Part shown: positions 16,311 through 62,328 of the stretch, one piece after another
Position numbering within the stretch: position 1 is the first letter of the stretch
Layout: each line of letters starts with the position of its first letter
Virus record (IMG/VR): IMGVR_UViG_2882674194_000007
Span: 32,001 to 96,000 of that record
From: a virus
Taxonomy: Duplodnaviria > Caudoviricetes
Reading direction: 5' to 3' (one strand)
Length of the DNA stretch: 64,000 nt
The notes under the pieces: model-generated
The model's database searches: none
Told to the model about the DNA's origin: nothing
What the model saw: the letters and a program-made list of their open reading frames with translations, nothing else
Program-made: the position numbers and the translations under genes

Positions 16311-16988
16311 TGTATGTCCTCTTTAAATGGAGGTAGATATTATATGGAAACAATATGGATTGAGCACGACAATGGGATCAAGGGGCAACATGGATTTTCC
16401 GAAGAAGAAATTTCCTCTGAAGTTGAAATTGATGCTTTGATCAAAAGCTATGAGGATTGCGGGATTGTGGTTTATGGATGGATATATTAAGCAATGAAAC
16501 AATTATTTGAAGGGAGAAAACTATGATCGAATTATGTTATGCAATATCTGATAAAAAGACAGGTGAAGAAGTTCATAGGAATTATGGGAAATTTGATTCC
16601 TTAGATGAATTTTATTCGTATATGAAGTTTAGATTCGGCTACACAAGTAGAAATTATAGCTTTTTGCTTAGTGGAATAGAAATCCAGTAATCCAGTAAAA
16701 AATATTCTGTCACCACAATAATACTAATATACGGGAAGAGACGAGCTACGCGCCGTCTCTTTTTGTATGGGTTGAGTATGACAGAAGATGAGGAGGACAA
16801 CACTTAAAATGAAACGAATTACCACATATGCAGAATTTCAGGCATTAAAAGCCATTTACAAAGAAGCAAAAGTTGTAAGCGTATCAGATTATGGCGCACT
16901 TATTTTTATAAGAAAATAAAACAGAATGGAGAAGTAGTTATTGATACTGATACATAGACAATCAAAGAAAGGTTAAACGGTGGAAATT

Positions 16989-18662
16989 ATGTCAAATTAT
17001 TATGATTATAGAGAAGTAAAGGTTATGATCGCTCACAAACTTATGTCTATGGAAGGCTGGAAAGTATACGGCTATAAAGAAGACAGAAGCGACAGTATGA
17101 CCGATTATTATGATCCTGCTAATTGGGACGGAGTAGCAGAAAAGAACGGCTATATTTTATGCGTAGATGTTTACGGCGCAGCAGAACCGCAGGAAATCAG
17201 AAAATATAATTACTCTGGTTTTACATATGATCGCAGCATAGCGGAAAAAATCAAAAAGTTGGAAGCTATGACCGTTGAACGTGGAGCTTCTGAAGCAGAG
17301 GAAGCAAGCGCAAAATTATCTATTGAACGTTTGCAGAAAAAAGCAGAAGAAGCAACGGAAAACGCAAATAAATATATTGTTGTTGGTACAGTTCCCGGAC
17401 ATATGGCACACCCTCCAAAAATGAATTGGCATATTGAAAAAGATGGGATCATCATTGCAAAGGGTAACGGCATTTTGAAATTTGCCCATATCTGGAAATA
17501 TTACAATTATAACCGTGATATGGAATGGTTAAACGAATATAAGAAGGACAAAAAAGCATATACCGATAAGCACACACAAGACCTTGTAAACCGTGGATAT
17601 TATGACAGTAAGGAAGACGCAAGAAAGAATACAGAAAGACATATTGAGGATTTAGAGGAAGATATTAAGCTGATAGATAAGTTTGAGACATTCATCAATA
17701 AAATTGATACTTCTTGTGGCGGTTTAATTGGAGAAGGTGACGGCACTATCTACGAAAAAGTTACCGTTACAGAATACAAAAAAGAAAATAAAGTTGTAGA
17801 AGATACGACTGGAAGCATTAAAGAGGGTCAGCTTTTCATTCTGAAATCTAATTTTAATTATGGATGTTATAAAGGGCTTGTATATCGTATCCATGAAACA
17901 GAGAGAAACGGACAGAAACATTTTCATGCTTATAAACTAAATGGAAAACTTACAAAGGAATGTACAGGAAACGCAAGCCGTAATAACTATTGGTTTGTTG
18001 GTAGTGGTGATTCTGAATGCCTCACAAAATGGATTGAAAAGGGTTCTATTGCATGGTGTCATATTGAAGAGGTAAAAACGCCATATGAGGTGGAAAAGGT
18101 TGTAAAAAAGACTATTAAAGCAGAAAAGAAAAATACGACATCTACCACAACGGAAACGGCACAAACAGAGGAAACAGACGTAAACGCCTATGCATATGAA
18201 GTATCAGAAGACACGGACACACGTACAGGAGAAAAAATATATCTTGTGAAGGTTGCGGAAAAATTGAGCCGTGAAGAGTATATAACCGTAAACAAGTATA
18301 TTAAATCTTTGGGCGGTTATTACTCGAAATTTAAACACGCCTTCTTATTTAAGGAAAATCCGGCAGAAAAGTTGAACACAACTATAGTGGAAACTACACA
18401 GACGGCAGAACCGGCACAGGAAGCACAAAGCACAAGGGAAGAACCAGAAGCGAAAAAAGAAAGTATTTCCTATACAATTATAGAAGATCAGCACACGCAA
18501 ACACACGCGAAAATCTGGATTGTAAAGCCTGAAAAGGAATTAAACAAGACGGATTTTGCAGAGGTTAAGCGGAAACTTGCAACGCTACAAGGCTACTATA
18601 GCACATTCAAACACGGATTTATTTTTAAATATAATCCAAAGGAAGTATTACAGACTGGATAA
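16989..18662 (+). CDS. Large multidomain early protein (DUF2786-like helix and duplicated C-terminal domain)
   Basis: EKIKKLEAM...GASEAEEASA; two copies of a GYYS(K/T)FKH(A/G)F(L/I)FK domain. Confidence 0.7.
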   Translation: MSNYYDYREVKVMIAHKLMSMEGWKVYGYKEDRSDSMTDYYDPANWDGVAEKNGYILCVDVYGAAEPQEIRKYNYSGFTYDRSIAEKIKKLEAMTVERGASEAEEASAKLSIERLQKKAEEATENANKYIVVGTVPGHMAHPPKMNWHIEKDGIIIAKGNGILKFAHIWKYYNYNRDMEWLNEYKKDKKAYTDKHTQDLVNRGYYDSKEDARKNTERHIEDLEEDIKLIDKFETFINKIDTSCGGLIGEGDGTIYEKVTVTEYKKENKVVEDTTGSIKEGQLFILKSNFNYGCYKGLVYRIHETERNGQKHFHAYKLNGKLTKECTGNASRNNYWFVGSGDSECLTKWIEKGSIAWCHIEEVKTPYEVEKVVKKTIKAEKKNTTSTTTETAQTEETDVNAYAYEVSEDTDTRTGEKIYLVKVAEKLSREEYITVNKYIKSLGGYYSKFKHAFLFKENPAEKLNTTIVETTQTAEPAQEAQSTREEPEAKKESISYTIIEDQHTQTHAKIWIVKPEKELNKTDFAEVKRKLATLQGYYSTFKHGFIFKYNPKEVLQTG

Positions 18663-18716
18663 TATAAAGGCGGTTGAAATATACCGACTTGCATAATGAA
18701 AGGAATGATTTTTTAT

Positions 18717-20357
18717 ATGTTTACAGGTAATAAAGACTTTTACCCTACACCACAAAATATTATTGACAAGATGCTTTTTGATTTAGATTTTACAATGATA
18801 AAAAGTATTTTGGAACCATCGGCGGGTAAGGGGGATATAGTTGAGACATTAAAGAAGAAAGAAGGAAACCATAATAAATATTATGGCAAACAATACTATC
18901 AGTTTGATATTGATTGTATAGAAGCTGATCAGAATCTGCAGCATATTCTTAAAGGGAAAAATTTCCGTGTTGTTTATAATGATTTTCTTACATATAACAC
19001 GATGAAGGAATACGATCTAATTATTATGAATCCGCCTTTTTCTAACGGTTGCAAACATCTTTTAAAGGCTTTAGAAATGCAACAAAGAAATGGCGGTGCG
19101 GTTGTGTGTCTTCTCAATGCGGAAACTTTAAAAAATCTATGTACAAATGATAGGCAGTATTTACAGCGTAAACTCACAGAATATAACGCAAAAATTGAGT
19201 TTATACAAAATGCTTTTCTGGATGCGGAACGGAAAACGGCGGTTGAAATTGCGCTTGTAAAGGTTCAGCTTCCAGAGGTGCAAAGAGAATCTTTTATATT
19301 GGAAAGATTAAGAAAAGCAAAAGATCAAAAAGAATTTCAGGCAGAGGAAAGCACAAAACTAATTGATAGTGATTTTTTCAAGGCTATTGTAAAACAATAT
19401 CAGTTAGAAGTGGAAGCAGGAATAAAATTGATTAAAGAATATTATGCAATGCAGCCGTTTATTTTGTCACAGTTTGGAAAAGACGAAAAGACAGGGGAAA
19501 CGATACAAAAAGGCGGCTGTATTATCTCCATGACTTGTAGTAAAAATGGGCTTTCTGTTAATGAATATATAAAAATGGTGCGGAGTAAATATTGGAATGC
19601 ACTTTTTGAAAATAAAAGATTTATAGGGCAGCTTACAAATAATCTGCAAAGAGATTTTTATAATAAAGTGGAAGAATTAAGTAACTATGATTTTTCACTT
19701 TATAATATCTACCAGTTAAAAATTGATATACAGAAAAAAGTTGTTAAAGGAATAGAGGATACCATAATAGATCTTTTTGATGAATTAAGTTATAAATACC
19801 ATTGGCTTGATGAAACGTCAAAAAACATTCACTATTACAATGGATGGAAAACAAACAAGGGATGGATAATCAATAAAAAAGTGATTATTCCTTTAAATGG
19901 TTTTTATGACCTTAATTATTCATGGGGAGGATTCAGACCGTCAAGGCATGATGTTGTAAGTAAATTACAGGATATAGAAAAATGTTTTAACTATCTTGAT
20001 GGAGGGCTAACAGAAGCGGTTGATCTGGAAGAATCCCTAAAGTTTGCAGAGGAATACGGAGAGACAAAGAATATACAGTTAAAGTATTTTACTGTCACAT
20101 TCTACAAAAAAGGTACATGTCATATTGTATTTAACAATGACGAGTTACTGAAAAAATTTAATATATTTGGTTCTCAGCACAAAGGATGGTTGCCACCTTC
20201 CTACGGAAAGAAGGATTATAAAAATATGACAGCAGAAGAAAAAGCAGTTGTAAATGAGTTTGAAGGAGAAAAAGAGTATAGCAAAGTTATTTCTAATAAA
20301 GAGTATTACTTGTTTGATGGAAATAATCTGAATTTACTGGAAGAGAAAACGGCATAA
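18717..20357 (+). CDS. N6-adenine DNA methyltransferase, DUF4942-type
   Basis: FYPTP, ILEPSAGKG, IIMNPPF motifs; YKKGTCHI C-terminal domain. Confidence 0.85.
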   Translation: MFTGNKDFYPTPQNIIDKMLFDLDFTMIKSILEPSAGKGDIVETLKKKEGNHNKYYGKQYYQFDIDCIEADQNLQHILKGKNFRVVYNDFLTYNTMKEYDLIIMNPPFSNGCKHLLKALEMQQRNGGAVVCLLNAETLKNLCTNDRQYLQRKLTEYNAKIEFIQNAFLDAERKTAVEIALVKVQLPEVQRESFILERLRKAKDQKEFQAEESTKLIDSDFFKAIVKQYQLEVEAGIKLIKEYYAMQPFILSQFGKDEKTGETIQKGGCIISMTCSKNGLSVNEYIKMVRSKYWNALFENKRFIGQLTNNLQRDFYNKVEELSNYDFSLYNIYQLKIDIQKKVVKGIEDTIIDLFDELSYKYHWLDETSKNIHYYNGWKTNKGWIINKKVIIPLNGFYDLNYSWGGFRPSRHDVVSKLQDIEKCFNYLDGGLTEAVDLEESLKFAEEYGETKNIQLKYFTVTFYKKGTCHIVFNNDELLKKFNIFGSQHKGWLPPSYGKKDYKNMTAEEKAVVNEFEGEKEYSKVISNKEYYLFDGNNLNLLEEKTA

Positions 20358-20391
20358 AGCCGATGAAATTGTAATTTGAAGGGAAAAACAC

Positions 20392-20595: not shown

Positions 20596-20680
20596 GCAGT
20601 TAGAACGGCTATTGAGAATATAAGGATATAGCCGTTTTATAGTGCTTATAAATTTCATAATAAGTAGAGAGGAAAACACT

Positions 20681-21394: not shown

Positions 21395-21637
21395 ATGACT
21401 AAAATAGAATATAGTAAATGTGTGAAACTTATGGAAGAAGCCATCTGGAAAGCCAATAATTCTAATGAGGATTATAGGGCATATGAGCGTTTGAAAAAAG
21501 AAGGGAAAAGTGTTGATGCAGAATGTAAGTTACGTGTAGCAGATCAAGAAATTGGATATGCAGAAGGAATAAATCAGGCACTTGCTACACTTGGCTTTAA
21601 ACATGACAGAATGAAGGAATTATCTGAGTTGCTGTAA
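21395..21637 (+). CDS. Hypothetical protein
   Basis: RBS; stop overlaps the palindromic motif. Confidence 0.7.
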   Translation: MTKIEYSKCVKLMEEAIWKANNSNEDYRAYERLKKEGKSVDAECKLRVADQEIGYAEGINQALATLGFKHDRMKELSELL

Positions 21638-21650
21638 ATCGTGTATTTCA

Positions 21651-21935
21651 TTGGAGGGAATAAAGGTGGAAAGGGTTTTAATTTTTAAATATCCGATTGA
21701 ATTTTCGGATAAAGTAAAGCAAATAAAAGAAGCATTTAAAATTCATAACATAGAGTTTATATGTTATGAATCAAACGGATATTATGATCATGAATTTATG
21801 GTCAGAAAGTCAGGTAAAAGATGGAATGATATATATACTATTATTAATTCTGTTAGACCAGCAAAGTATGAGTTTAAGAAGACTTGTATTGAAGTGATAA
21901 ATGGAGAATTAAAAGAGATAGTATATTGTCAATGA
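21651..21935 (+). CDS. Hypothetical protein
   Basis: Bounded by motif copies at 21635 and 21933. Confidence 0.65.
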   Translation: MEGIKVERVLIFKYPIEFSDKVKQIKEAFKIHNIEFICYESNGYYDHEFMVRKSGKRWNDIYTIINSVRPAKYEFKKTCIEVINGELKEIVYCQ

Positions 21936-22334
21936 AACTACTGATTCAACCATAGAAGGGATAAAGCATGAAAAAATATGGATTCAAAAAATTAAATAAT
22001 GGATGGCGTTTCAAAATCGGTGGAACGTCTGGAGAAGCGTTTGGAATTACACTAAGATATTTTAATAAATGTGGCTTTCGGCTTCTAATAAATTTTAATA
22101 CGGATTTTCTTATAAATCTTTTTGGATTCAATCAAAAGATTATTGGTGTTTGAAAGCTCCTACAAGTCCATTTAAAGCCTTAAATCAGCGCATATGCAAA
22201 TATGTATGTGCGTTGCATTAAGTCCTTAAATAAGGCAAATAAACAGTATAGAAAGAGAAGTATAGAGCAAGTGACAAGTGGAAATGTTGCTTGCTTTTAT
22301 TATTGGAAAATCAAATAGAATGGAGGAAATTTTT

Positions 22335-23234: not shown

Positions 23235-23456
23235 ATGAAACATAAAGAACTTTATGATGCTATTACAGATTTTCGGATAAAATATGGTAGCCGGAAATTT
23301 AATGATGATGAAAATATGACAGCATATAGAAATCTTGTTGATATGTCTATTAAGTGTGGAATTATACCAGAATGTAATAGGAAAGAATATTCTACACATG
23401 GGAGATTAATGGCAGCTATCACATATGAAGGTAATAGAATAGCATTTTGCCAATGA
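23235..23456 (+). CDS. Hypothetical protein
   Basis: GGAGGAG RBS; stop overlaps motif. Confidence 0.7.
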   Translation: MKHKELYDAITDFRIKYGSRKFNDDENMTAYRNLVDMSIKCGIIPECNRKEYSTHGRLMAAITYEGNRIAFCQ

Positions 23457-23483
23457 AAGAATCGTTTGAACGGAGGAAAATTT

Positions 23484-24369: not shown

Positions 24370-24565
24370 ACGGATGAATCAATGGATTCATGGAAGGAGA
24401 AGTTATGAGAGGGATCAAGAATCCGAATGTGGATATTAAAACAGACGGAAATGATATTATTGTAACAGATGGAAAGACGGAATATTTTCGGAAACCAAAA
24501 ACGAAACAGACAGTTGCTATTGCACATGATATTTATTTTGCAGAAAAGTATATGGATTTGGAGGA

Positions 24566-24817: not shown

Positions 24818-24867
24818 GTAACAAAAGGCAAGGAAATAATGATTTTAAGTAGAAAGAGAGGAAAACT

Positions 24868-25392: not shown

Positions 25393-25426
25393 AAGTCAAT
25401 AAAAACACAATTTTGAGGAGGAATAT

Positions 25427-25601: not shown

Positions 25602-25844
25602 ATGGCTCAATATGGAATAAGTGTAAGGGAAATTTTGAAGAGAACTGTTATTGTAGAAGCGGAAAGTCTTGAGGAAGCAATACAGAAAGTAGAAGATGCT
25701 GTGGAACGTGAGGAAATCATTCTGGATGTAGATGATTATGACGATCGGGAAATTGTACCGTCTGAATATTTTGGTAACGGCTCAGGAGAAGTTCCTGAAG
25801 GGGAAGATGTTAGTTCCTATTGGCACATTGGAGAAGATAATTGA
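25602..25844 (+). CDS. DpnD/PcfM family protein
   Basis: VREILKRTVIVEAESLEEAIQKVEDA...IILD. Confidence 0.75.
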   Translation: MAQYGISVREILKRTVIVEAESLEEAIQKVEDAVEREEIILDVDDYDDREIVPSEYFGNGSGEVPEGEDVSSYWHIGEDN

Positions 25845-25878
25845 GTACTTAGATTCAGGATTTTGTGAGGGAATAAAT

Positions 25879-26157: not shown

Positions 26158-26209
26158 TGTTTTGAAATCGGAATTTCAATGGCAAATAAAGAAAAGAGAG
26201 GATATTAAA

Positions 26210-27633: not shown

Positions 27634-27679
27634 AACATACAATGAATTTCGCATTTCAAAGCTAAAATGGGAGGTTATT

Positions 27680-28636: not shown

Positions 28637-28747
28637 TAGGCAATGAAATGTACCTTTTTAGTCCTTTTAATCGGACACATATAATAGTATAATGGAAACA
28701 TAAACGAACAGATCAAAGTCCTACATAGTAGGCAGAAAGGAAAATAT

Positions 28748-28951: not shown

Positions 28952-29251
28952 ATATGGAAGCGAATAGAAAGCCACTGGAAAATAATCTGGTGGCTTTTAT
29001 AGTGGAGAAAATAAGGAAAGAAGGACAAAATAGAATGGATAAGAATACATACACACTTGGAAAGAAATTTGAATGTTGCGGAAAGACTATGGTAACTGTT
29101 ATAATTAAAGGCAGAGCAGCTTGTGTAATGACAGAGTTGGAATATAACAGGATTATTGAGACAGAGAGGAAATATTTACGGAATAATAGATTAAGAAGAT
29201 CAGCATAGACAGAAAAGGATTATTTCATTGAGAAAATTGGAGGGTTAAAAT

Positions 29252-29578
29252 ATGAGATATACAGAAAGCATTGAAGTTTGTGATGTATGTGGAAAAAGAT
29301 TTTTTGGTTCATCAATAAATATTCATGGTTCATATGATTATATTAATCATACAAATTTTTCAAATAATATAGGAACATTATTTGCTTGGACTAAAGAACT
29401 TTCTGGAAGTGAAAGAGTAGATGCAATCGTAGAAGAATTTTTTAATGACGATGAGCAAATTAGTAAGGAGGATGCTATTGAATTTTTAGAATGCTTTAAA
29501 CACTATAATTATCCTGATAGACAGTTATTAAATGAAGTGTTTAAGAAAATACAAGATAGAATTGATAATATGGATTGA
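29252..29578 (+). CDS. Hypothetical protein
   Basis: Bounded by motifs at 29212 and 29576. Confidence 0.7.
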   Translation: MRYTESIEVCDVCGKRFFGSSINIHGSYDYINHTNFSNNIGTLFAWTKELSGSERVDAIVEEFFNDDEQISKEDAIEFLECFKHYNYPDRQLLNEVFKKIQDRIDNMD

Positions 29579-29644
29579 AATGATTGTTCTATTTGGAAGT
29601 TGATAAAAATATATAATATGAAAAATGGGAAAGAAGGGAAAATA

Positions 29645-30932: not shown

Positions 30933-31229
30933 ATGGAACAATATGAATATGATGATGTATTTTGTGTTGATTGTAATGGATATAGAAGACAAATATTAGC
31001 TGGGGAAAACATATATGATGGAATGTTGAGATACATTTGTACAGAATGTGGATGTGAAAACAACGTAGAAGATAAAGAATATAAAAATATGATTGATACC
31101 TTGAAAAATATTGGAGAAAAAGGTATGTCAGAAAGCAATATTTCTTTAACAGAATATTCTGAAATGCTAAAAGTGTTATGTAATAAATATGGAGAGGAAA
31201 AAGTTAAAAAAGATTTAGGAATGAAATAA
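30933..31229 (+). CDS. Zinc-ribbon hypothetical protein
   Basis: CVDC...CTECG. Confidence 0.7.
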   Translation: MEQYEYDDVFCVDCNGYRRQILAGENIYDGMLRYICTECGCENNVEDKEYKNMIDTLKNIGEKGMSESNISLTEYSEMLKVLCNKYGEEKVKKDLGMK

Positions 31230-31304
31230 TAGTTTTAACTGATGAAACGTATATTTAGTTGCAAAATGGATATATCTATGGTAAAGTGTAAAAGAGGTGA
31301 TATT

Positions 31305-31783: not shown

Positions 31784-32176
31784 ATGGAAAAGAGAAATAT
31801 TATAAGAGATAAATGGATGGGGAAACATACAAAAGAGTTTTATAAAACATATTGGGTAGATAGAGGAAAATATCAAGAGAATAATAATAGAATCAAGAAA
31901 CTTCTTAAAGGGTCTTCTTCTGGATATAGTGAAAACAAATATATAAATCTATTTATTGCAACATGGAAAGTTTATTATTATATCCACAATACCTATGCTT
32001 ATGGCAGAAAACCTGTTGATAATGGTGAATTTAGTAATGAATTTGAAATGTTTAATAATTTACGTATAGAATTTGATTTCAAAGAAGCAGTTCAATCTTT
32101 TGTATATTTGGAAAATTTTATGGATAGAGTAATTGAGTTTCTTATGGATAAAGATTTGGATTGCGAAGCCAATTAA
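31784..32176 (+). CDS. Hypothetical protein
   Basis: RBS; stop overlaps motif. Confidence 0.7.
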   Translation: MEKRNIIRDKWMGKHTKEFYKTYWVDRGKYQENNNRIKKLLKGSSSGYSENKYINLFIATWKVYYYIHNTYAYGRKPVDNGEFSNEFEMFNNLRIEFDFKEAVQSFVYLENFMDRVIEFLMDKDLDCEAN

Positions 32177-32208
32177 ATCTAAGTTTTAAGTTATATGGAG
32201 GATGCAGA

Positions 32209-32736
32209 ATGAAATATTATTTGTTTAATTATGATGATGTGAGTATGATGTATCATGATCGCGTTGTCCCTAAAGAAGAGATTATATGTGAATTTGAATT
32301 TAATGGATTTACTTATTTTTTAAGCGATAAAGAAATTATTAATGTGAGTGCTACTCAACGGAGAAAATGCATTGAACAATTTTCAAAATGGATAAGACAA
32401 TTTAATTTGAATAGAAAATATATTTTAAGATATAGTGATATTTGGCTATATGAGAGAGATTGTTATGAATTATTATCAGATTATTTAACTTGGGAAGCGA
32501 ATAAGAATGGGGAGACTTATGCTGAAGTTATTTGCAAATCGGATAATTTGAAGGAAACTATTAATGAAATAATAAAATCTTTAGCAAAAGAGCGATTAGA
32601 TGTACAGAGTAGGGATTTAATTATTGAAATAGAAAAAGGAATGAATGAAGATAAACTTGATGTTGAAAAAATAAGGGAAGAGGTACAGGAAGTAACCCAA
32701 AAAATTTATAATAAAACTTTTGAATGGATTGATTAG
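32209..32736 (+). CDS. Hypothetical protein
   Basis: GGAGG RBS; between motifs at 32173 and 32741. Confidence 0.7.
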   Translation: MKYYLFNYDDVSMMYHDRVVPKEEIICEFEFNGFTYFLSDKEIINVSATQRRKCIEQFSKWIRQFNLNRKYILRYSDIWLYERDCYELLSDYLTWEANKNGETYAEVICKSDNLKETINEIIKSLAKERLDVQSRDLIIEIEKGMNEDKLDVEKIREEVQEVTQKIYNKTFEWID

Positions 32737-32774
32737 GCAATAAAATTAGATATTTAAGGAAGGGATGAGGATAA

Positions 32775-33119: not shown

Positions 33120-33232
33120 TCAGCACGACAATGTGATATTTAACTAAATACATTAAGGTAGTAAAGCATTTGGAATTAAAATCCAGATGCTTTTTATTAT
33201 ATAAAAAATTACATATTTAAGGAGGTTTTAGT

Positions 33233-34162: not shown

Positions 34163-34185
34163 TTTGATGAAATGGAGGAAATGTC

Positions 34186-35223: not shown

Positions 35224-35318
35224 TTTGTATATTCCACGCTGTATATGTGTTGGATCGTGCTCTATACTTCTTCACGAAAAAGAGAAGTAGTTTATATAAA
35301 ATGATTGGAGGAAATAAA

Positions 35319-35636: not shown

Positions 35637-35750
35637 TGTGTACTTGAAATCATCGTTTCAACTTGTGATACATAGTTGCACAGAATATTGTACAAAATAT
35701 TGACAAAACTATGAATATGACATATACTATATTCAAAGGAGAGTGATTGT

Positions 35751-36002: not shown

Positions 36003-36005
36003 TCT

Positions 36006-36260: not shown

Positions 36261-36366
36261 TAATTTAGAGTGGTCTGAGAAGCATTGACGGGAATCGTTA
36301 GTGCTTTTCTGTTTTAAATGTAGAAATAATATGTAGAAGAAAAATTTGAAAGAAGGGATTTAAAAT

Positions 36367-37227
36367 ATGGGAAATAAAACAAAACAAACAGGTAAGACAG
36401 AGGTATATCCATTTTGGTATATGAAAGATATCAAAAATATGATGGATTATTTTAAAATGAAAGGGCAGTGGCACTGGTATTTAGTGTTTAATTTTGGCTT
36501 GCTTCTTGGAAGACGTATAAGCGATACACTTTATTTAAAATGGTCTGATTTTTATTATGAGAATGGAAGAATGAAGGATGAAACAGATATTGTTGAATGG
36601 AAAACAGGAAAGACTGTTAGATTGTATATTTGTCCAGCTTGTCAAGAAGCATTGAAATTATATATTGATAAAACCGGCACAGACCCGATGGATAATTATA
36701 ACGATTTTGTTTATGGAACTGCTCAAATGTCACAGTTGTTAGAAAATAAAGAAGAGTATCCTGAAGAAAATTGGAAGGAACTAATGATGAAAGCAATACA
36801 AAGTCATGCTGCAGCATTTAGAAAACAGTTTAAGTTAGCGGCAGATGCCTGTAATATACAATATGCGACTTCGACTCATAGTCTTAGGAAAAATTTTGGA
36901 TACTGGTCAGTTAAACTTCATCCATATGATGTGACAACTGTAGACAAATTGCAAGGGATATTTTCACATTCTGATCGCAATACAACTCTTCACTATATCG
37001 GAATTTCAAGAGAAGATGAAAAGAAATTATATTGTGATATGGGAGATTTTATTACTGATATTTCTAATGGGAAGAAACCGATAATCAAGAATAGCCCTGT
37101 AATCCCTTTAAAGGCAGAGGATTTCAGAGAAATTCTTAGTAAGTGTTGGGATATGGCGCAGAATGGAGAAGATAAGTTTGACGGGATTAATAATCTGATT
37201 GGTATGGCAGAAAAATGTATGGTATAA
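36367..37227 (+). CDS. Tyrosine recombinase (catalytic domain, short N-terminus)
   Basis: RISD, KTGK, HSLRK, FSHS, TLHYIG: full R-K-H-R-H-Y set. Confidence 0.9.
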   Translation: MGNKTKQTGKTEVYPFWYMKDIKNMMDYFKMKGQWHWYLVFNFGLLLGRRISDTLYLKWSDFYYENGRMKDETDIVEWKTGKTVRLYICPACQEALKLYIDKTGTDPMDNYNDFVYGTAQMSQLLENKEEYPEENWKELMMKAIQSHAAAFRKQFKLAADACNIQYATSTHSLRKNFGYWSVKLHPYDVTTVDKLQGIFSHSDRNTTLHYIGISREDEKKLYCDMGDFITDISNGKKPIIKNSPVIPLKAEDFREILSKCWDMAQNGEDKFDGINNLIGMAEKCMV

Positions 37228-37246: not shown

Positions 37247-37810
37247 TTGTTAAGAGCAATAGAATTTACGGATAAACGTTTTAAAAAGGAAGAGGATTAT
37301 AATTTATTTAGTCCAATATCAAACAATTGTATTATTTTATGCAATAACTATAAATTGATGGATTCTCTTGCAAAAGAAATATTAGATACAGTCAATGGGA
37401 ATGCAGAGTATAATGTTTATGATTGTGATGATAAGGATATTGGAAATGCAAAAATGTGGTTGTCTTTCGGATTACAGAGAGTGATTGATATAAATGGTCA
37501 GAGAATTACATTATCGCTGGAACCGGCAATCATATATAAAGCTAATGATATAGAAGATATATGGTTGTTTTGCTATAGCGGAACAGATGAAATTGAAACA
37601 TTACCACCATATCAAGAATATATTTATCCTGTGTGCATCTTTAAAGGAAGTCGGAAGGTATGGGAAGATGGTAAAGATGAAGTTTATAAGATGATTTGTA
37701 ATGGAAGATATGGAACATATGATGGTAAATGGATTGATTTACATGGTGATCATTGGGAAGATGAAACTCATAATTGTATATCAAAAGTAAATATGCAATT
37801 AAATGATTGA
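37247..37810 (+). CDS. Hypothetical protein
   Basis: GGAGG RBS, 187 aa. Confidence 0.7.
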   Translation: MLRAIEFTDKRFKKEEDYNLFSPISNNCIILCNNYKLMDSLAKEILDTVNGNAEYNVYDCDDKDIGNAKMWLSFGLQRVIDINGQRITLSLEPAIIYKANDIEDIWLFCYSGTDEIETLPPYQEYIYPVCIFKGSRKVWEDGKDEVYKMICNGRYGTYDGKWIDLHGDHWEDETHNCISKVNMQLND

Positions 37811-37828
37811 TTTTATTAGAACGGAGGA

Positions 37829-39061: not shown

Positions 39062-39094
39062 ACAGTTGAATACTTGATTTTATTGGAGGTTTTA

Positions 39095-39993: not shown

Positions 39994-40038
39994 TAGGCAA
40001 TAAATGTCTGATTTCAAGGAAGAATTGAGGTAAAATAT

Positions 40039-40778: not shown

Positions 40779-41027
40779 GCAAGGAAATTCGATTTTCATT
40801 GGGGAGGGAATGAAATGTTATACGGTGTATATGTAAAAAGTGGTGACGAAAACAGTAAGCCACAAATGAGGATGCGATCTTCAAGTGATGCAAATTTCCT
40901 TTTTCGTAAGGGATGTGAAGCAGTATTTTTAAGTGAGATAGATGCTTTTGGATATGGTTTTGAACAATCTAAAATGAGAAAAATAGATTTTGATAGAAAT
41001 ATTATTGATATAGATGAGGATTAATAT

Positions 41028-42477: not shown

Positions 42478-42527
42478 ATGATAGTCTTGAAATCCGGTTT
42501 TCATAGCATGAATGGAGGAATAGGTAA

Positions 42528-43423: not shown

Positions 43424-43857
43424 TTATAATATTGGAGGTTAATAACATGAAAACAATTTGGTATGCTGTAGTTGATTCAATAGAAGTTCCAGATGATATG
43501 AGTGATCATGAAATCGATAATAAAATCAATGAAATAGCTGATGGTAAGGAAGTTATGTGGTCAGAAAAAGACGATCTTATTGATATTCGTCAATGGGATT
43601 AAAAATGCCAATAGAATGTTGCTTTTAAGAGGAAATGTGAGGTGTGATATGATGACTATTTTTGAAGCAAATAGTAAATTAATTGAAATTGGAAATGTAA
43701 TGATTGAAGAACATGGTTTACAATATTATATTGTTCCAAGAACAACACTTAAAGAGTCTAATATAGAATTATATAAACAGTCCTATGATAATGTGGAGGC
43801 TGCTTATGAGGTTGCATTGCAGTTGCCATCAAATTTTGGAATGGAGAGCGTCTAAAT

Positions 43858-44178: not shown

Positions 44179-44784
44179 ATATAAGGAAAGTTGGTGATTC
44201 ATCTATGAATAAACTACCTAAAATTGGTGATTTATTATATGCTGAAAGTGGTTATTTAATTGTAAGGCATTTGAAAATCATAGCAATTGATAAAAAAGAA
44301 AATATCAGTGATAGTATTGTAACAGTAATTGGAAAATATGGAAGAAGATATAGTGAACCTTTATGGATGTTTGCTGGAATTGAGTAAATGAAATGCTGTT
44401 TTTAAGGAGCAGATTAATATGTTGGGAATATGGTTGTTAAGGAGACATGCAAAAAAATCAAAAGAAAAATTAAGGGATTATTTATCTATTGATGATTTTG
44501 CAATTTTGTTATCAGAATATGATGGTTACGCCAAAAGTTTACCAAGGTGGGTGTGGTGGTTTTAGGCAATGAAAGGCTGGTTTTAAGAAGGGGAGGAGAA
44601 AATGCAATATTGTAATACAAAAAAGAGTTGTAAATATAAACATGATTGTTATAATGAACAGACGGTTGTGGATGGAGATAAGTTATGTACATTTTCTGAT
44701 TGGTGTTTATATCAGGAAATAATTGAAGATGATAAAGATTAACTTCGAAATTCAAGTTTTAAGTAATGGACTGGTGGTGATATA

Positions 44785-45331: not shown

Positions 45332-46072
45332 ATGAATAGTCCTAAGAATAATGATATTTTAGATTTTCTTTTGGAAAGATTCAAAATAGAAAGAGAGAAG
45401 TTTGACAGATCTGGTGTGTATGCATATACGCAGCGTTTGTTTGCCTATAATTCAAATAAAATTGAGGGAAGTACGCTTACTGAGGAACAGACGGCATCTT
45501 TGTTTGACAATGGTACACTTCCAAAATCAGATGATTATTACAGAGCAAAGGATGTTGAGGAAATGAATGGGCATTTTCTCATGTTTAATAAGATGTTGGA
45601 CACGCTGGATGAGCCATTGACACAGGAACTAATAAAGAAATTTCATTATGAGTTGAAGTCTGGAGTATTTGAGGATCGTGCTAACGGATATGCAATCGGC
45701 GATTATAAGCAACGTCCTAATATGATCGGAATGTATCAGACTGTAAGACCAGAAGACGTTGAAAAAGAGATGAATGTTCTCATGGGATGGTATTTTAGAC
45801 AGAAAGTAAATATTTCTGTATTATCTGAGTTTCATGCAAGATACGAAAGTATTCATCCATTCCAGGACGGAAACGGTAGGACGGGAAGGTTGATTCTCTT
45901 TAGGGAGTGCCTAAAGAATGGTATTGTGCCGGTTGTGATTGAAGATGCAAATAGAAATGAGTATCTGGAGGCATTAAAAGAATATAGAGAAGAAAAAAGT
46001 CTGGATAAATTAATTACACTTTTTGAAAAAGAGCAGCAGTTTTATTTTGGGAAGTGCAAATATTTTATGTGA
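45332..46072 (+). CDS. Fic family protein
   Basis: SNKIEG and HPFQDGNGRTGR motifs. Confidence 0.95.
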   Translation: MNSPKNNDILDFLLERFKIEREKFDRSGVYAYTQRLFAYNSNKIEGSTLTEEQTASLFDNGTLPKSDDYYRAKDVEEMNGHFLMFNKMLDTLDEPLTQELIKKFHYELKSGVFEDRANGYAIGDYKQRPNMIGMYQTVRPEDVEKEMNVLMGWYFRQKVNISVLSEFHARYESIHPFQDGNGRTGRLILFRECLKNGIVPVVIEDANRNEYLEALKEYREEKSLDKLITLFEKEQQFYFGKCKYFM

Positions 46073-46305
46073 GAGGAAATCTATATGGCAAAGAAAAATT
46101 ATTATTGTATTAAAGCGAGTAAAGGAAATGCATGTGATACTATTTCTTTTGAGAAAGATGAAGATGATATGATTTGTATTTGCATGGAAGGTGAAGAATT
46201 AAGGTTTACTGTAAAAGAAGCAAAAGAAATTGCGGATAAACTGAGAAAATGTGCGAATGAATAGAAATGAATGTTCAGTTTTATGATATATAGGAGAAAA
46301 TTAAT

Positions 46306-46722: not shown

Positions 46723-46765
46723 CAGATAAAAGTGAAATTTTAAGGATAAATATAGAGGTAGAAAT

Positions 46766-46987
46766 ATGACAGGAGATAAGTATAGAGTAAAATGTGATTG
46801 TCAGATTAGCAGATTTAAGTTAAAGCAAGGTGATATATTGATTGAATTTGGTGCATATAACTTTGAAACAGAAGAATATGAAGATGGTGGCGAATACAAC
46901 GATCTTAGAAATAATAATTATGAATATATATGTGATGTTGGCAGTCAATTCTCAAAAGAGAATTTAGAGAAAATGGAAATAAAATAA
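46766..46987 (+). CDS. Hypothetical protein
   Basis: Between motifs at 46727 and 46980. Confidence 0.7.
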   Translation: MTGDKYRVKCDCQISRFKLKQGDILIEFGAYNFETEEYEDGGEYNDLRNNNYEYICDVGSQFSKENLEKMEIK

Positions 46988-47111
46988 CTATTTCAGGAGG
47001 AATGAGCATGTTCGAAATCATAAATGTAAGAGTCCACATATGTATCCTGTAAACATTTCCAGCCTTGATAGGTGTTTACAGGGTGCAAATAATATCAAGG
47101 AGGACTCTTCT

Positions 47112-49136: not shown

Positions 49137-49208
49137 TGGGCTATTGCCAAGCGGCAAGGCACAGGACTTTGACTCCTGCATTCGCTGGTTCGAATCCAGC
49201 TAGCCCAG
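49137..49208 (+). tRNA. tRNA-Gln (TTG)
   Basis: TGGGCTA/TAGCCCA acceptor; CAGGA-CTTTGAC-TCCTG; GCTGG-TTCGAAT-CCAGC. Confidence 0.95.
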
Positions 49209-49212
49209 TTAT

Positions 49213-49286
49213 GGATCCTTATTTCAGTTGGTTAGAAATCTCGGCTCATAACCGAGCAGTCCTGGGTTCGAGTCCCAGAGGATCCA
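49213..49286 (+). tRNA. tRNA with CAT anticodon, probably Ile2 (or elongator Met)
   Basis: GGATCCT/AGGATCC; CTCGG-CTCATAA-CCGAG; CTGGG-TTCGAGT-CCCAG; paired 1-72 so not initiator. Confidence 0.9.
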
Positions 49287-49360
49287 TTAAATCAGTGTTT
49301 TAAGCACACTGTATTTTTTATACCCATTTTTAGGGAATCAATAAGAAAGGATGAAGAAAA

Positions 49361-50849: not shown

Positions 50850-52223
50850 ATGGCAAGACCTAGAAAACAAACCTATACTTTGGACATGTATCTAAAGAAG
50901 AACCGGAAGGGAGACATTGATAACAATGCAGATGTTCAGAGAAATTTTGTCTGGAATAATGAGCAGATCAATGAACTGATCGTCACCGTACTGACAGATG
51001 ACTATATTCCTCCCATTATTCTCGGAGAAGAATCTAATTCAAGATTACATATTGTGGATGGCGGTCAAAGGACAGCAGCGTTAATAAAATATAGATATGG
51101 AAATCATAAGATAACATCTTCTATAGAAAACTCTATTATACCTTACAAGAAAAAGACATTGGACAAAGATGGAAAAACAATATATGAGGATACTGTATTT
51201 GATATAAAAAACAAGACTTTTGAAAAACTTCCTGATGAATTAAAGGAAAAGTTTGATGAATATCAGATTGAAACAGTTATTCATGAATCTTGTGATAGCT
51301 TTATAATTTCCAGATATATCAAAAGATATAATAATCATGTAGCCATGAATACTGAACAGAAAGCTTTTACATACATTGATAAATTTGCAAGTCGAATCAG
51401 AGAAATCGTTAATAGTAAATTCTTTGTTGAGTGTAACAATTATTCTGAAAAGGATAAGACAAAGGGTGTTGTTGAGAGAATAGTTGTAGAATCTATGATG
51501 TGTATGAATCATTTCGACAATTGGAAAACGCAGCCAAAACCGGCCTTTAAATATCTTAACGACCATGCTGCTGAGGAAGAATTTGATATGTTTGCTGATA
51601 ATCTGCATAGGCTTGAAAATATCATAACCGTCGATATTAAGAACATATTTAATAAAAAAGATTCCTTTGTATTCCTTACGCTGTTTGATAAATTTACACG
51701 GCTTGAATTAGATGATGAGAAGTTTGTTGGGTTTCTAAGAGAGTTTCAATGCAAATTGCGTCCAGTCAAAAGAAATGATAAAGGGTTATTGTTTGATGAA
51801 ATTGATAAAGATGCAAGTACAAAGGATAAGCAGGTAATAACTGATAAATTGCATATGCTTGAGAATCTGATGTTGGATTTTTTGCATATTGATAACACTA
51901 ATTCCGCGCAAAGTAATATAGAGTCATTTATAGCTCAAAATCTTGATATGGATGTAGAAACTGTTCAAGTTGATATGGATTTTTATAATGAGTCATTGAA
52001 CGAATTATTAGATCATACAGTCAAGATTGATTCTAAATTGCGTAATGAAGCAAATAGACCTTCGTTGTTAGCAATGATGGTTTATTCATATAAAGAAGAT
52101 AAGGATTTAGATAAATGGATGACCGAATACGCAAGGCAGAATAATACATATTTTGTTGACCAGAAAAAGAATTTCTTACATATGAAAAATGATTTTGAAC
52201 ATTATCTTAAAAAATGTGCATAA
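50850..52223 (+). CDS. DUF262/ParB-like domain protein
   Basis: VQRNFVW, IPPIIL, IVDGGQRT. Confidence 0.85.
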   Translation: MARPRKQTYTLDMYLKKNRKGDIDNNADVQRNFVWNNEQINELIVTVLTDDYIPPIILGEESNSRLHIVDGGQRTAALIKYRYGNHKITSSIENSIIPYKKKTLDKDGKTIYEDTVFDIKNKTFEKLPDELKEKFDEYQIETVIHESCDSFIISRYIKRYNNHVAMNTEQKAFTYIDKFASRIREIVNSKFFVECNNYSEKDKTKGVVERIVVESMMCMNHFDNWKTQPKPAFKYLNDHAAEEEFDMFADNLHRLENIITVDIKNIFNKKDSFVFLTLFDKFTRLELDDEKFVGFLREFQCKLRPVKRNDKGLLFDEIDKDASTKDKQVITDKLHMLENLMLDFLHIDNTNSAQSNIESFIAQNLDMDVETVQVDMDFYNESLNELLDHTVKIDSKLRNEANRPSLLAMMVYSYKEDKDLDKWMTEYARQNNTYFVDQKKNFLHMKNDFEHYLKKCA

Positions 52224-52492: not shown

Positions 52493-52530
52493 GTTAAAAG
52501 CCGCATTTCATCGGGAAATATGGAGGAAAA

Positions 52531-54270: not shown

Positions 54271-54405
54271 TGATGAAACTAACATTTTAAGTTGGCGGCT
54301 GAAAGTTTGGTGTAAAGAGAAAGTTTTTAATGAAGAAGGTGTGGAATAGCCTAAAGTCATCCAGTTTTGAAAAATTAATTTCAACCGGAGAAAGGGATAT
54401 ATAGG

Positions 54406-54747: not shown

Positions 54748-54789
54748 TTATAGGAATGAAAATTTGATTTTGTGGTGTGAGGTGATAAG

Positions 54790-55146: not shown

Positions 55147-55346
55147 TCTACCAAATAGCAGATCAAAAGCATCCATTTATGGGACTATACAACAAGGTTT
55201 GTAAAACCCCTGTTTATTGGTGTCGATTACATCAAGTCTGGTTGTCTGATGATGATGTAAAGAAGAAACAATGTAAATGTAAACAGACTTTTGACATGGT
55301 TGGTACATATTGTTGCGGAAATTTAGTCAAGAAATCAATAAAATGA
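55143..55346 (+). CDS. Small Cys-rich protein
   Basis: Overlaps previous stop; WCRLH. Confidence 0.65.
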   Translation: MIYQIADQKHPFMGLYNKVCKTPVYWCRLHQVWLSDDDVKKKQCKCKQTFDMVGTYCCGNLVKKSIK

Positions 55347-55409
55347 AACTTTTAAGAGGAGAAAAGAGAAATATTAAATTATAAAACAAAATGAAAAAGG
55401 AGAAAAATT

Positions 55410-56177
55410 ATGTGTAATTTTAAAAGCGGAATTATTTTAAAGAACAAAGTGGTTTTAGCACCAGAAGGAAATGAGAGTCATTCAGATTTATTGGAGAGTC
55501 TTGGTATTGAAGATAATCATATAAATGCAACAAAAACATTTGTAAGAGCAGAATTGATTCCAAAAAACAATGACAAAATGACGGATGTAAAAGAGTGGAG
55601 ATATAAAGTTGATCAGGATATTGTACCTGATTGGTATGAGAAAGATCCAGAGAGATATGAAAAGGAATTCAGAGATGCAGTTGAAAAGTATATGGAAGAT
55701 TGGAGGAAGAAATTCAAATATATTTGTGGGTATTATTGGACAAGTGTACAGGATGGAGATCGTACATATTATTTTATGAATAGTATCCTTAAAAAGTCTG
55801 AGTTTGGTAAGACAAATAATTACGCAGAATCTTATGTACGCAAGGAGCTTGTTAATAGTGAGTTAGCTGAATCTTTAAAGAAAGAATTTGGAGACAAATT
55901 ACTTCCTATTTCGCTGGATTTGACATCAATGGATGGATTTAAGGATTATGATATGGTAGAAGGCGACATTCTCGCGATTACTAATATTCAGTTGTTAATG
56001 AAATTCGGAGAAAGCATTCCATTGATTGATAATTGGTATTGGCTTGCTACACCTAATCAGACACCCAAAAGAGGAGATGCCCGCTGTGTTCAGTTTGTTA
56101 ACTCCTGTGGCTATGTGTGCTACAACGTCTGTGGCTATGACGGGGGCGTGCGTCCGTTTTTTATCCTTAAATCTTAA
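55410..56177 (+). CDS. DGR target protein with C-terminal CLec-like (DUF6273-like) domain
   Basis: WYWLATP...GGVRPFFIL C-terminus contains the VR. Confidence 0.9.
   Translation: MCNFKSGIILKNKVVLAPEGNESHSDLLESLGIEDNHINATKTFVRAELIPKNNDKMTDVKEWRYKVDQDIVPDWYEKDPERYEKEFRDAVEKYMEDWRKKFKYICGYYWTSVQDGDRTYYFMNSILKKSEFGKTNNYAESYVRKELVNSELAESLKKEFGDKLLPISLDLTSMDGFKDYDMVEGDILAITNIQLLMKFGESIPLIDNWYWLATPNQTPKRGDARCVQFVNSCGYVCYNVCGYDGGVRPFFILKS
56079..56158 (+). repeat. DGR variable repeat (VR)
   Basis: Ungapped match to TR; 16 mismatches, 14 at TR adenines. Confidence 0.95.
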
Positions 56178-56668: not shown

Positions 56669-56748
56669 ACCCACTATGTTCAGTACGTTAACTCCAATGG
56701 CAATGTGAACTACAACGACTGTGACTATGACAAAGGTGTGCGTCCGTT
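56669..56748 (+). ncRNA. DGR template repeat (TR)
   Basis: AAC/AAT-rich copy of VR; flanks AGGTTGTTTGTT 56652 and AATAAACAACCT 56810 can pair. Confidence 0.95.
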
Positions 56749-58204: not shown

Positions 58205-58244
58205 TTGAAACACGAGTTTCATAGATGAGGAGTGAGAAAGATAA

Positions 58245-58736
58245 ATGTTAAAGCCAGCACAATTATATAAAGATGAATTGCAGAAGAGAAACATTGAAAC
58301 ATGGTATGACCAGAGATATATGTATTATCACAGCGGAACAGGCGCATATGATATTCAGTTTGCGGATAATAATTGCGATAAGCACCAGTTTGTGTCTGTA
58401 GACAAAGATGATAATGTACTTGGTTATATATCTTACAAAATTGATTGGTGCGCTTTAAATGCTGACAACTTTGGAATTATAAGCTATGACATGGGAAATG
58501 TTGAATTTGCAAAAGACTGTTATAAAGTGGTATGTGATTTATTTGAAAAGTATCACATGAATAGAGTTGGATGGTTTGCTTTTGCTGATAATCCTGCAAT
58601 TAGAGGGTATAGAAGTTTTATAAAGAAACATGGAGGTAGGGAATGTGCTTATTTGCGGCAGATTTCTAAACTTACAGACGGAAATTTACATGACGCTGTT
58701 GAATTTGAAATATTGGCAGAGGAATTTATTCGATAA
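58245..58736 (+). CDS. GNAT (RimJ/RimL-like) acetyltransferase
   Basis: VLGYISY...NPAIRGYRSFIKKHGG...DGNLHD..FEI. Confidence 0.6.
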   Translation: MLKPAQLYKDELQKRNIETWYDQRYMYYHSGTGAYDIQFADNNCDKHQFVSVDKDDNVLGYISYKIDWCALNADNFGIISYDMGNVEFAKDCYKVVCDLFEKYHMNRVGWFAFADNPAIRGYRSFIKKHGGRECAYLRQISKLTDGNLHDAVEFEILAEEFIR

Positions 58737-58759
58737 ATCGAAGGTTTCAAGGAAGGAGC

Positions 58760-58996
58760 GTGAGTAATATTAAAGAAAATATGATTAAAACGCAAATAGG
58801 TAAAAATATATTTCATGAATATGATTCAAATTCACTTTTTGATCGAAATATAGAAGAATTTCATAATATGACAAAAGACCATACTGAAATTTTAGGTCAA
58901 TTTCTTGATTTTACAGCAATGAGTATAGAACAACTTAAAGAGTGTTTGTTAAGTGGTTATATACACATGGATAGAGGTAAGTTTATTAGCAGATGA
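58760..58996 (+). CDS. Hypothetical protein
   Basis: Between motifs at 58734 and 58994. Confidence 0.65.
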   Translation: MSNIKENMIKTQIGKNIFHEYDSNSLFDRNIEEFHNMTKDHTEILGQFLDFTAMSIEQLKECLLSGYIHMDRGKFISR

Positions 58997-59027
58997 ATGA
59001 AACATTTCAACTGAGGAGGTAGATAAA

Positions 59028-59684: not shown

Positions 59685-59791
59685 GCGGTTGAAATAAATC
59701 TTTCAAAGAAATAGAAATAGTAACTATAAAAACGAAAGGAGTAAGAGGTTTGCTGGCCAGCATGAAAGACTGTCTTTACTCCAAAATGTAA

Positions 59792-61414: not shown

Positions 61415-61923
61415 ATTCTGCTTGTGGTGAAGAAGATATATTGCTGGCAGCACTTAAATATCAACGCACAGAATACGCAAAGAAAATCAGAAAGGACTAT
61501 GAAGCAGGTAGAATTCAGGAACGTAGATGTAACATGAGAGAATATACTCTTAGGACAGATGGGCTTTGCAATACGATAACTACTGTTACGAAAGACAATT
61601 ATATAGCTGTTGGTGCTGCTATGCGTGGTAGATATAATTCTGATGGAAAAATAGAACAGCAGATAGAAGTAAGAGAAGATGAATTGTCTAATGCTATTAC
61701 AACTGTTCAGAAGGATAGTTTGGTTGTAGAGAAGAAGTCATGACTTGAAAAGAAATATGCAGAATTTTATGAAAAGCATGGTTATATTCCTGAGTATTTT
61801 GTTCCTTACAATGGAACTGAATGTACAGATTATGCACCAACTTTAACTGCAAATTCTAATACAAGTCCAACACATTCTGGAACAGTTTTGATTATGGAGA
61901 TTGGCAAAGAAAACAAGTCTTAA
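61411..61923 (+). pseudogene. Stand-alone TRD-like repeat protein with in-frame TGA at 61741
   Basis: CNTITTVTKDN, SNAITTVQKDS, and after TGA APTLTAN; frame ends at TAA 61921. Confidence 0.6.
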
Positions 61924-61956
61924 AACCCACGATTCAAGGATGGAGGAGGAAAGAAA

Positions 61957-62280
61957 TTGAAAAAACTTGTTACAACACCGCTCCCTAATACGATTTGGTG
62001 GGCGAATGTAAATGAAGAAAAAGGAATTATAACTGGTGATAAAAAAGATGTTACTGATAATGCTATTGATGCTGTTTTTCAGCACTTAATAGGACAAGAA
62101 AAATTCAAGGAAACTGGATTTACTGGTTATCAAATACCCAAAAAGAATAGTGAAGAATATATAACTATGGCAGTTTTTAAGAGTAATACTCATGTGTGTC
62201 TCACAAAAGAAGTGTATGAGGAACTGAAGAATTATATGAGAATGTATGATGAATTGGTGACAAAAACAGGAATTACATAA
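61957..62280 (+). CDS. Hypothetical protein
   Basis: TGDKKDVTDNAIDAVFQH; between motifs at 61921 and 62288. Confidence 0.7.
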   Translation: MKKLVTTPLPNTIWWANVNEEKGIITGDKKDVTDNAIDAVFQHLIGQEKFKETGFTGYQIPKKNSEEYITMAVFKSNTHVCLTKEVYEELKNYMRMYDELVTKTGIT

Positions 62281-62328
62281 ATAGTCTTGAAATCTGCGAT
62301 TTATCGTGTGTGGAGGTGAATTTAGTGG

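Follow-up and report, generated by a model that had tools for sequence, protein, structure and literature searches.

What is the purpose of a short palindrome that recurs all along one arm of a phage genome, nearly always just behind a gene? The question is raised by a stretch of 64,000 nucleotides of viral DNA, here called the window (positions 32,001 to 96,000 of IMG/VR record IMGVR_UViG_2882674194_000007; G000:C133:32153-96152 in our genome set), for which an initial annotation had described about 40 sites of the form TGAAA-N6-TTTCA dividing the accessory arm into gene cassettes. The contig C133 consists of ~150 kb of DNA at 31–33% GC and 27 kb of host DNA at 50% GC, the host genome overall being at 47.6%, and the low-GC part is an SPbeta-like prophage with two arms. 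The late arm is on the − strand, with a YonO-type RNA polymerase at its head and YonN- and YonJ-like genes adjoining, and the early arm, ~100 kb long and with a strong skew of G over C, is on the + strand. The central result is that the six-base spacer of each site is a conserved, position-specific address between related genomes.

The reality of the element was established with the degenerate consensus TRAAW-N6-WTTYA, scored out of ten arm positions. All 42 coordinates listed in the initial annotation hold a site (26 at 10/10, 15 at 9/10 and one at 8/10), and sites at 44570 and 36347 were added to the list. The exact TGAAA-N6-TTTCA of its title is found at just 7 of the 42, the others being of the degenerate form, and its flank claims stand, with TAGGCAA ahead of several sites and an identical 14-mer at 42481 and 62281. 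The enrichment over background that such a series implies was borne out by the expected count and by scans of the spacer. Eight exact copies were observed in the window where 0.55 are expected; between 16 and 64 kb the degenerate form occurs 38 times at N6 and 6–13 times at the other spacers from N0 to N14; and in the whole early arm (C133, 47–150 kb) it occurs 66 times at N6 and 15–23 times at other spacings. An unbiased scan of every 5-mer palindrome at every spacing ranked TGAAA-N6 first, with 13 against 0.1. As TGA or TAA opens the left arm and the ribosome-binding site (RBS) often follows directly on the right arm, a compositional artefact can be imagined, in which the A-rich context of stop codons and the U-rich stretch before the RBS combine by accident in an AT-rich genome. 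This is refuted by the spacing scans and has virtually no chance of being right, since the fixed N6 spacing is 3–5 times as frequent as any other, the exact form stands so far above expectation, both arms remain together beside the stop even when the RBS is distant, and the late arm, the host part and the remaining 4.65 Mb of the genome lack the N6 peak.

The same element is found in other phages. It is the top palindrome of the SPbeta early arm, where exact TAAAA-N6-TTTTA occurs 27 times against 0–2 at other spacings and the TAA of many sites is the annotated stop codon (e.g., of yorS, yorT, mtbP, yorZ, yosC, yosF and yosR), and in phi3T the counts are 23 against at most 3. Among 80 IMG/VR loci retrieved with the DUF4942 methyltransferase as anchor, the G form of the arms, which is also the form of this phage, is the top palindrome in L028, L034, L035 and L047 and the A form in L030, L051, L052, L054 and L068, and the element ranks second in L043 and L053. 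It was not found in the GC-rich relatives among these loci, nor in TR-TP1, a YonO phage whose early genes nearly all overlap. No description of it was found in the papers searched, namely a review of SPbeta, the MrpR paper and one preprint each on SPbeta relatives and on prophage recombination.

The conservation of the spacer emerged when 141 gene-end sites in 13 related loci were compared with the sites of this phage, reversed sequence serving as the control. The six-nucleotide centre of 67 of the 141 sites matches one of this phage's centres at all six positions, as against 0/141 in the control, and matches at five of six positions are not enriched (22 vs 44 in the control). The reverse complement of a centre was matched only once, so the orientation is fixed. 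Shared centres are colinear with this phage in 51 of 54 steps, including 10/10 in L034, 7/7 in L039, and 6/6 and 5/5 in two contigs of G187, a genome holding, in pieces, a relative of the prophage that is 92–95% identical. The spacing between the same two addresses varies from phage to phage, and in 37 of 66 shared-address cases both 400-nt flanks are without blastn or tblastx similarity. Among pairs of sites with a common address, agreement at the degenerate arm positions is only 67–81%, and the flanks are near random. The centre is therefore the part of the site that is best conserved between genomes and least conserved within one genome; the initial annotation, which had called the 6-bp spacer unconserved, had seen only the latter. 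Between 16 and 58 kb of the window, 25 of 33 sites have an address in at least one relative, and of 34 junctions with homology on one side only, counted by eye, ~30 have kept the centre with the homologous side. SPbeta and phi3T have 11 addresses in common, which run in the same order in both phages; at four of these addresses at least one of the flanks is unrelated.

Such order bears on how the genes might move. One possibility is that each gene unit moves like a small transposon, with the arms as its 5-bp terminal inverted repeats and the centres as target duplications, and neighbouring centres are indeed slightly more alike than random pairs, both in this phage (7 vs 2.6, P = 0.016) and across loci after de-duplication (25 vs 15.3, P = 0.009). 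A similar signal (P = 0.02), however, was given by one of four control hexamers, the centres on the two sides of one unit are almost never identical, and random transposition would have scrambled the addresses, which in fact keep their order and orientation, all of which makes this explanation very improbable. The shuffling and reordering that the initial annotation had proposed was right in that the sites border exchangeable units, but reordering is not the main mode: since the addresses are colinear in nearly all steps, exchange is mostly in place.

That the sites are borders of exchangeable gene units, as the initial annotation had also supposed, was upheld by comparisons with G187, IMG/VR relatives and metagenome contigs, in which blocks of homology end at the sites far above chance. 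In G187, 7 of ~23 block ends fall on a site, and one single-site junction joins the unit that lies upstream of 44746 here to the unit that lies downstream of 40783 here. Metagenome contigs of four studies were compared with 30–50 kb of the window, with patchy cover of which the uncovered parts prove nothing, and about half of the 30 listed joint ends are within ~10 nt of a site. For example, X6 has a 2.4-kb replacement with borders at 44570-85 and 46980, an X8 contig lacks the yefM–yoeB unit between sites 35645 and 36347, and the one-gene unit 32173-32741 is found as a unit in L024 and in run X14. When this phage was compared with 15 IMG/VR loci and G187, borders lay at 17 of 35 motif junctions and 11 of 54 other junctions (odds ratio (OR) 3.7, P = 0.009). 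Between SPbeta and phi3T, 14 motif junctions are broken and 8 continuous, as against 4 and 36 of the others (OR 15.8, P = 1.7e-5). The sites are preferred borders, not the sole ones.

Their placement was examined with our own gene calls, which gave 197 + strand genes and 196 junctions. Sites are present at 74 of these junctions, and the junctions without one are nearly all shorter than 23 nt, i.e., translationally coupled. Junctions of 23–57 nt contain just the 16-bp site and the RBS. Of the sites, 18 begin on the stop codon itself and ~40 begin 4–12 nt past it. Long intergenic regions have their strong sites within −3 to +8 nt of the upstream stop, and the distance from site to next start can reach 90–1200 nt with the site still beside the stop. 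Since sites in long gaps stay near the stop, this is a gene-end element and not part of the ribosome-binding region. Two transcriptional readings were dropped, namely a sigma-type promoter, for which there is no space for a −10 element ahead of the RBS, and a promoter or terminator for YonO, which transcribes the late operon from one promoter, the late arm being without the motif.

A position so close to stop codons suggests an element of the mRNA, either a hairpin or a bipartite A-rich/U-rich signal, acting in processing, ribosome release or re-initiation at uncoupled junctions. It would suit such a role that the element lies 0–12 nt past stops, that nearly all uncoupled (23–57 nt) junctions have it and coupled ones do not, and that TR-TP1, with its overlapping early genes, lacks it. 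The symmetry of the site speaks otherwise. A logo and covariation were computed on 57 sites, and the frequencies proved mirror-symmetric at the R/Y and W positions, the spacer edges (A is avoided at position 6 and T at position 11) and the W flanks, with the symmetry extending to positions 0/17 and perhaps −2/19. No covariation was found at any of the eight mirrored pairs. Positions 2:15 form 26 Watson–Crick pairs where 26.9 are expected, and A:C (11) is nearly as frequent there as G:T (16); positions 5:12 and 6:11 are likewise without covariation. With no pairing selected, A:C mismatches not depleted, a stem of five A-U-rich pairs too weak for stability, no matching Rfam family and no account of why site-specific centres are conserved between genomes, an RNA element has very little chance of being the explanation.

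Two equivalent and independent half-sites at a fixed spacing, without covariation, argue instead for a double-stranded DNA site for a dimer. Judged by this pattern, the element is a dyad DNA site, with binding by a dimer predicted, and not a hairpin or an attC. The integron attC to which the initial annotation had likened it likewise closes a gene cassette at its 3′ end and may include the stop codon, but it acts as a folded single strand of 57–141 nt with paired R and L boxes, as against 16 bp without covariation here; the analogy fails, and an attC-like mechanism is excluded, as no hairpin is selected. The other likeness drawn there, between the arm–6 bp–arm layout and the sites of tyrosine recombinases, fares better, as it fits a double-stranded core site. 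Like lox, FRT, dif and pdif core sites, the element has inverted arms around a 6-bp centre, and its mirror-symmetric logo is what two arms should give. In tyrosine-recombinase sites the overlap region of 6–8 bp is free in sequence and must match between partners, and a free centre that matches between partners would likewise account for centres that vary along one genome and recur unchanged, between unrelated flanks, at colinear positions in others. Many mutually incompatible sites on one molecule, as with heterospecific lox and FRT, would allow ordered exchange without self-deletion, and pdif sites also bracket small gene modules. The elements considered here differ in having arms of ~5–8 bp, in numbering 60–100 per genome and in being known from sequence alone. 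To our knowledge, no natural system of heterospecific cassette-exchange sites has been reported.

The reading that we favour, and to which we would give about an even chance, is that these are crossover sites that need identical centres, in the manner of tyrosine-recombinase overlap regions, and that serve the in-place exchange of cassettes. A dimeric phage protein would read the two arms of ~5–8 bp around the 6-bp centre, and every gene unit of the early arm that is translated on its own would end in one site. Two phage genomes would cross over at sites with identical centres, a single crossover swapping all that lies downstream and two crossovers swapping one slot, and the differing centres within one genome would prevent its self-deletion or inversion. 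Dimer binding, catalysis by a recombinase and the need for identical centres are what we infer, the last because the centre, of which a binding protein has no need, is preserved letter for letter at matching sites from genome to genome; the enzyme is probably a tyrosine recombinase of the early arm. One mechanism would thus explain the common dyad arms, the 6-bp centre, the differing centres within each genome, the constancy of order and orientation, and the occurrence of unrelated genes in one slot.

A regulatory or architectural role is the alternative with the most to be said for it, although we regard it as unlikely. The sites would resemble stoperators or the SPBRE boxes of SPbeta, for example blocking read-through of the early arm in the lysogen, and gene exchange would be a by-product, the site being the sole sequence common to unrelated units, so that recombination by a Sak4-type annealing protein or a RecJ-like nuclease uses its 16–18 identical bases. 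Dyad symmetry without covariation suits a DNA-binding dimer of this kind too. MrpR (YopR), the master repressor of SPbeta, has a recombinase fold and binds SPBRE (PMC10516654). SPBRE occurs in the same lineage and the same early arm, to which the present element is also restricted, and is itself a dyad, its 5-bp arms enclosing a 7-bp centre, that frequently lies immediately 5′ of an RBS (PMC10516654). It differs in its sequence (ATACA-N7-TGTAT, as derived from SPbeta), its ~10 promoter-linked copies and its conserved A/T centre, whereas the sites described here follow stops. In SPbeta the two elements are found in tandem ahead of aimR and of yorE (76171-76230, 99498-99620), in the order gene end, TAAAA-type site, SPBRE, promoter. 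Cluster A mycobacteriophages likewise have 20–30 repressor sites that are not at promoters and that stop elongation; these stoperators are protein-binding sites in short intergenic gaps of the transcription units of a temperate phage (PMC6550527). They are, however, 13-bp asymmetric sequences, oriented with transcription, on both arms and with no site-specific centre (PMC6550527), whereas the arms here are symmetric.

For an operator one would predict constrained arms and a free spacer, and a centre more constrained than the arms is the reverse of this. The ten peaks of MrpR in chromatin affinity purification sequencing (ChAP-seq) are all at SPBRE, none being reported at TAAAA-type sites (PMC10516654). 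The sites follow stop codons and not promoters, and a regulatory role would need separate explanations for the arms and for the centres. It gains from the presence of short-homology joints in these phages, one of which, in L024, shows that general short-homology recombination works there and could use 16 identical bases, and from the mostly homologous recombination of SPbeta and phi3T in the laboratory. Repeated borders are known from T4-type phages, in which the promoter early stem-loops (PeSLs) lie between small early genes in hyperplastic regions where related phages differ by insertions, deletions and replacements (PMC2839356, PMC4122927). The PeSLs are promoter–terminator composites of ~50–70 nt that recombine by ordinary homology (PMC2839356, PMC4122927), in contrast to a 16-bp element with dyad arms, a position-specific centre and no promoter, terminator or stable stem.

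The favoured crossover reading calls for an enzyme, and the initial annotation had pointed to the recombinase at 36367. A 98% identical copy of this 286-amino-acid protein is present in the record of L024 and a 29% relative in that of L058, and its cover is uneven among the metagenome variants. It is absent from G301 (92% complete), G302 (100%) and G303 (71%), all three of which carry arrays of sites, and its absence from G301 and G302 in particular argues that it is not the enzyme of the system. As its distribution indicates, it is an accessory cassette that is not conserved with the array. A sequence search of the PDB with it gave no match, it scored 17 bits against integron integrase models that have cut-offs of 265–435 bits, and no attI-like head of the array was seen. 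A likeness between its C-terminal tail and that of YopP, suggested by alignment, was dropped when BLASTP of the protein against YopP of SPbeta and phi3T gave nothing significant. YopP is itself a core gene of SPbeta-like phages and is expressed in lysogens. A YopP-like gene of 317 amino acids lies just left of the window (C133 30838-31788, − strand), with clear orthologues in G302 and G304 only. All five related records examined have at least one gene of the Phage_integrase family, and the four recombinases that were aligned (from G301, G302, G303 and G306) lie in or near the early arm with the HxxR, H and Y motifs intact. A conserved cognate recombinase was not found, the 36367 gene and the YopP-like gene both being patchy among the relatives.

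Several observations weigh against crossover at dedicated sites. The recombinases of the early arm belong to two or more unrelated types, no one recombinase family accompanies the array from phage to phage, YopP has the motif HSLR in phi3T and HSFK (HxxK for HxxR) in SPbeta, and TR-TP1 has a tyrosine recombinase and no motif. In a core site of a tyrosine recombinase one would expect longer conserved arms. Measured against motif-less junctions with spacers of at least 23 nt, the enrichment of borders is weak, both between SPbeta and phi3T (14/8 broken to continuous at motif junctions vs 4/13, P = 0.023) and in this phage (P = 0.07), and 35 of 54 unique block ends, about two thirds, are at non-motif junctions or inside genes. 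The short-homology joint in L024 is at a 13-of-15-nt match inside genes and not at a motif, and L024 also has one translocated block. In laboratory crosses of phi3Ts with SPbeta, 15 of 16 recombination sites were in long homologous regions (bioRxiv 10.1101/2020.05.06.055103). The genome and contig comparisons yielded no recombination product, circle or empty site.

If crossover at like addresses is nonetheless what the sites serve, its compass would be wide. We suggest tentatively, at slightly below an even chance, that SPbeta-like prophages, in gut Clostridia as well as in Bacilli, possess a natural system of cassette exchange with 60–100 heterospecific sites, of which a phage recombinase would cross only those with like addresses. 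Co-infecting or resident relatives would then trade accessory genes (defence, toxin–antitoxin, diversity-generating retroelement (DGR) and methylase genes) slot by slot, each leaving its own genome unscrambled. This would explain the fast turnover of defence and counter-defence cargo in very large temperate phages that keep their gene order, and would be a natural counterpart of engineered cassette exchange. The usual account of phage mosaicism is that illegitimate joins arise rarely and are then selected, or that recombination takes place within genes that the phages share; in the present case the sequence framework is more conserved than the genes that it separates, and it marks the points at which accessory genes are replaced. 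Both SPbeta and phi3T have the element in abundance and can be handled genetically in Bacillus subtilis, so that a direct test is feasible.

Table 1. Junction sites and other features, in window coordinates. Sites are given without strand; 9/10 is the arm score, and "shared address" means that the centre recurs in relatives.
Feature	Positions	Strand	Remarks
Junction site	16495..16510		9/10; address in relatives
Junction site	20364..20379		After DUF4942 methyltransferase gene; address in L024, L025, L027, L032, L034, L039
Junction site	21635..21650		Left arm is stop codon; shared address
Junction site	21933..21948		Left arm is stop codon; shared address; L039 block start
Junction site	23454..23469		Left arm is stop codon; shared address
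Junction site	24375..24390		Shared address
Junction site	24832..24847		9/10
Junction site	25400..25415		9/10; shared address
Junction site	25842..25857		9/10; left arm is stop codon; shared address (L027)
Exact site	26163..26178		Left border of 94.5% block common to G187
Junction site	27643..27658		Right border of G187 block begun at 26163
Junction site	28644..28659		9/10; G187 block start
Junction site	29212..29227		9/10; address in L024, L034, L047, G187
Junction site	29576..29591		9/10; left arm is stop codon; shared address
Junction site	31222..31237		
Junction site	32173..32188		9/10; left border of one-gene cassette (unit in L024, X14)
Junction site	32741..32756		Right border of one-gene cassette from 32173; shared address
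Exact site	35645..35660		8 nt past stop, 114-nt gap; border of several metagenome joints
Site	36347..36362		Ahead of recombinase gene; yefM–yoeB unit 35645-36347 skipped in X8 contig
Junction site	37800..37815		Contig piece end
Junction site	39067..39082		End of G187 block and X8 piece
Junction site	40001..40016		Shared address (G187, L043)
Junction site	40783..40798		9/10; in G187 joined to unit here upstream of 44746
Exact site	42488..42503		Shared address (G187, L058)
Junction site	43612..43627		9/10; shared address
Junction site	44389..44404		Retained with left flank in X14, with right flank in X6
Junction site	44570..44585		Absent from initial annotation; left border of 2.4-kb X6 replacement
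Junction site	44746..44761		9/10; G187 block end
Junction site	46268..46283		X8 joint border
Junction site	46727..46742		Shared address (G187, L031)
Junction site	46980..46995		Right border of X6 replacement
Junction site	52495..52510		
Junction site	54274..54289		3 nt past stop, 135-nt gap; shared address (G187)
Exact site	54368..54383		
Junction site	54757..54772		9/10; shared address (G187)
Junction site	55339..55354		Ahead of DGR unit; G187 block start
Exact site	58206..58221		Behind DGR unit
Junction site	58734..58749		Left arm is stop codon
Junction site	58994..59009		Left arm is stop codon
Exact site	59690..59705		5 nt past stop, long gap
Junction site	61921..61936		
Junction site	62288..62303		
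YonO-type single-chain RNA polymerase	4098..6788	−	PF05183; heads late arm; late arm without motif
DUF4942/Dam-like methyltransferase	18696..20357	+	Anchor for retrieving 80 related IMG/VR loci
286-amino-acid tyrosine recombinase	36367..37227	+	Catalytic domain only; R-K-HxxR-H-Y complete

The closest named relatives of the prophage are phages of Thomasclavelia and Enterocloster, SPbeta being more distant. The stretch is present in sequencing runs of mouse-gut metagenomes, and the host is a mouse-gut bacterium from outside the Bacilli. A DNA search of the family (300 genomes) gave mostly tRNA matches and a close relative in G187 only, and megablast of 30–50 kb of the window against phage records gave only a tRNA match. 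Three tRNA genes are present in the prophage, Gln-TTG and Met-CAT in the early arm (49137-49287) and Ile-TAT in the late arm (2581-2656). The + strand of the early arm (16001-64000) has ~11% C and 21% G, a GC skew of 0.25–0.46, and so gives very C-poor mRNAs. At the head of this arm, ~1.4 kb (14224-15655) contain no sense open reading frame and no Rfam family at gathering score, and are partly conserved, at 72–96%, in L025, L026, L027, L034 and G187.

Some of the units hold features of their own. The GmrSD N-terminal domain is found in two genes, 34186-35223 and 50850-52223. Directly upstream of the former is a gene for 309 amino acids without a Pfam match (33233-34162), the 5′ part of which is fused in L024 (21140-21240) to the 3′ part of yoeB, the matching stretches being 33492-33505 in the former and 36188-36202 in the latter, and one contig of X14 leaves out 33208-35238. 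Sites 55339 and 58206 enclose the DGR unit, whose variable and template repeats (VR/TR, 56080-56158 / 56670-56748, 81% identity) are the only sizeable internal repeat of the window; a search for duplicated cassettes within the genome gave only this pair and one 238-bp repeat. A gene for 246 amino acids at 45332-46072, between sites 44746 and 46268, has DNA relatives at 65–85% in numerous genomes of the host family, among them that of the host itself, on contig C100, and looks like a recently captured host-type gene. The host assembly has a second low-GC contig, C91 (27.6 kb, GC 0.354), which has a weak excess of the motif at N6 (9 vs ~4) and may be part of a related element.

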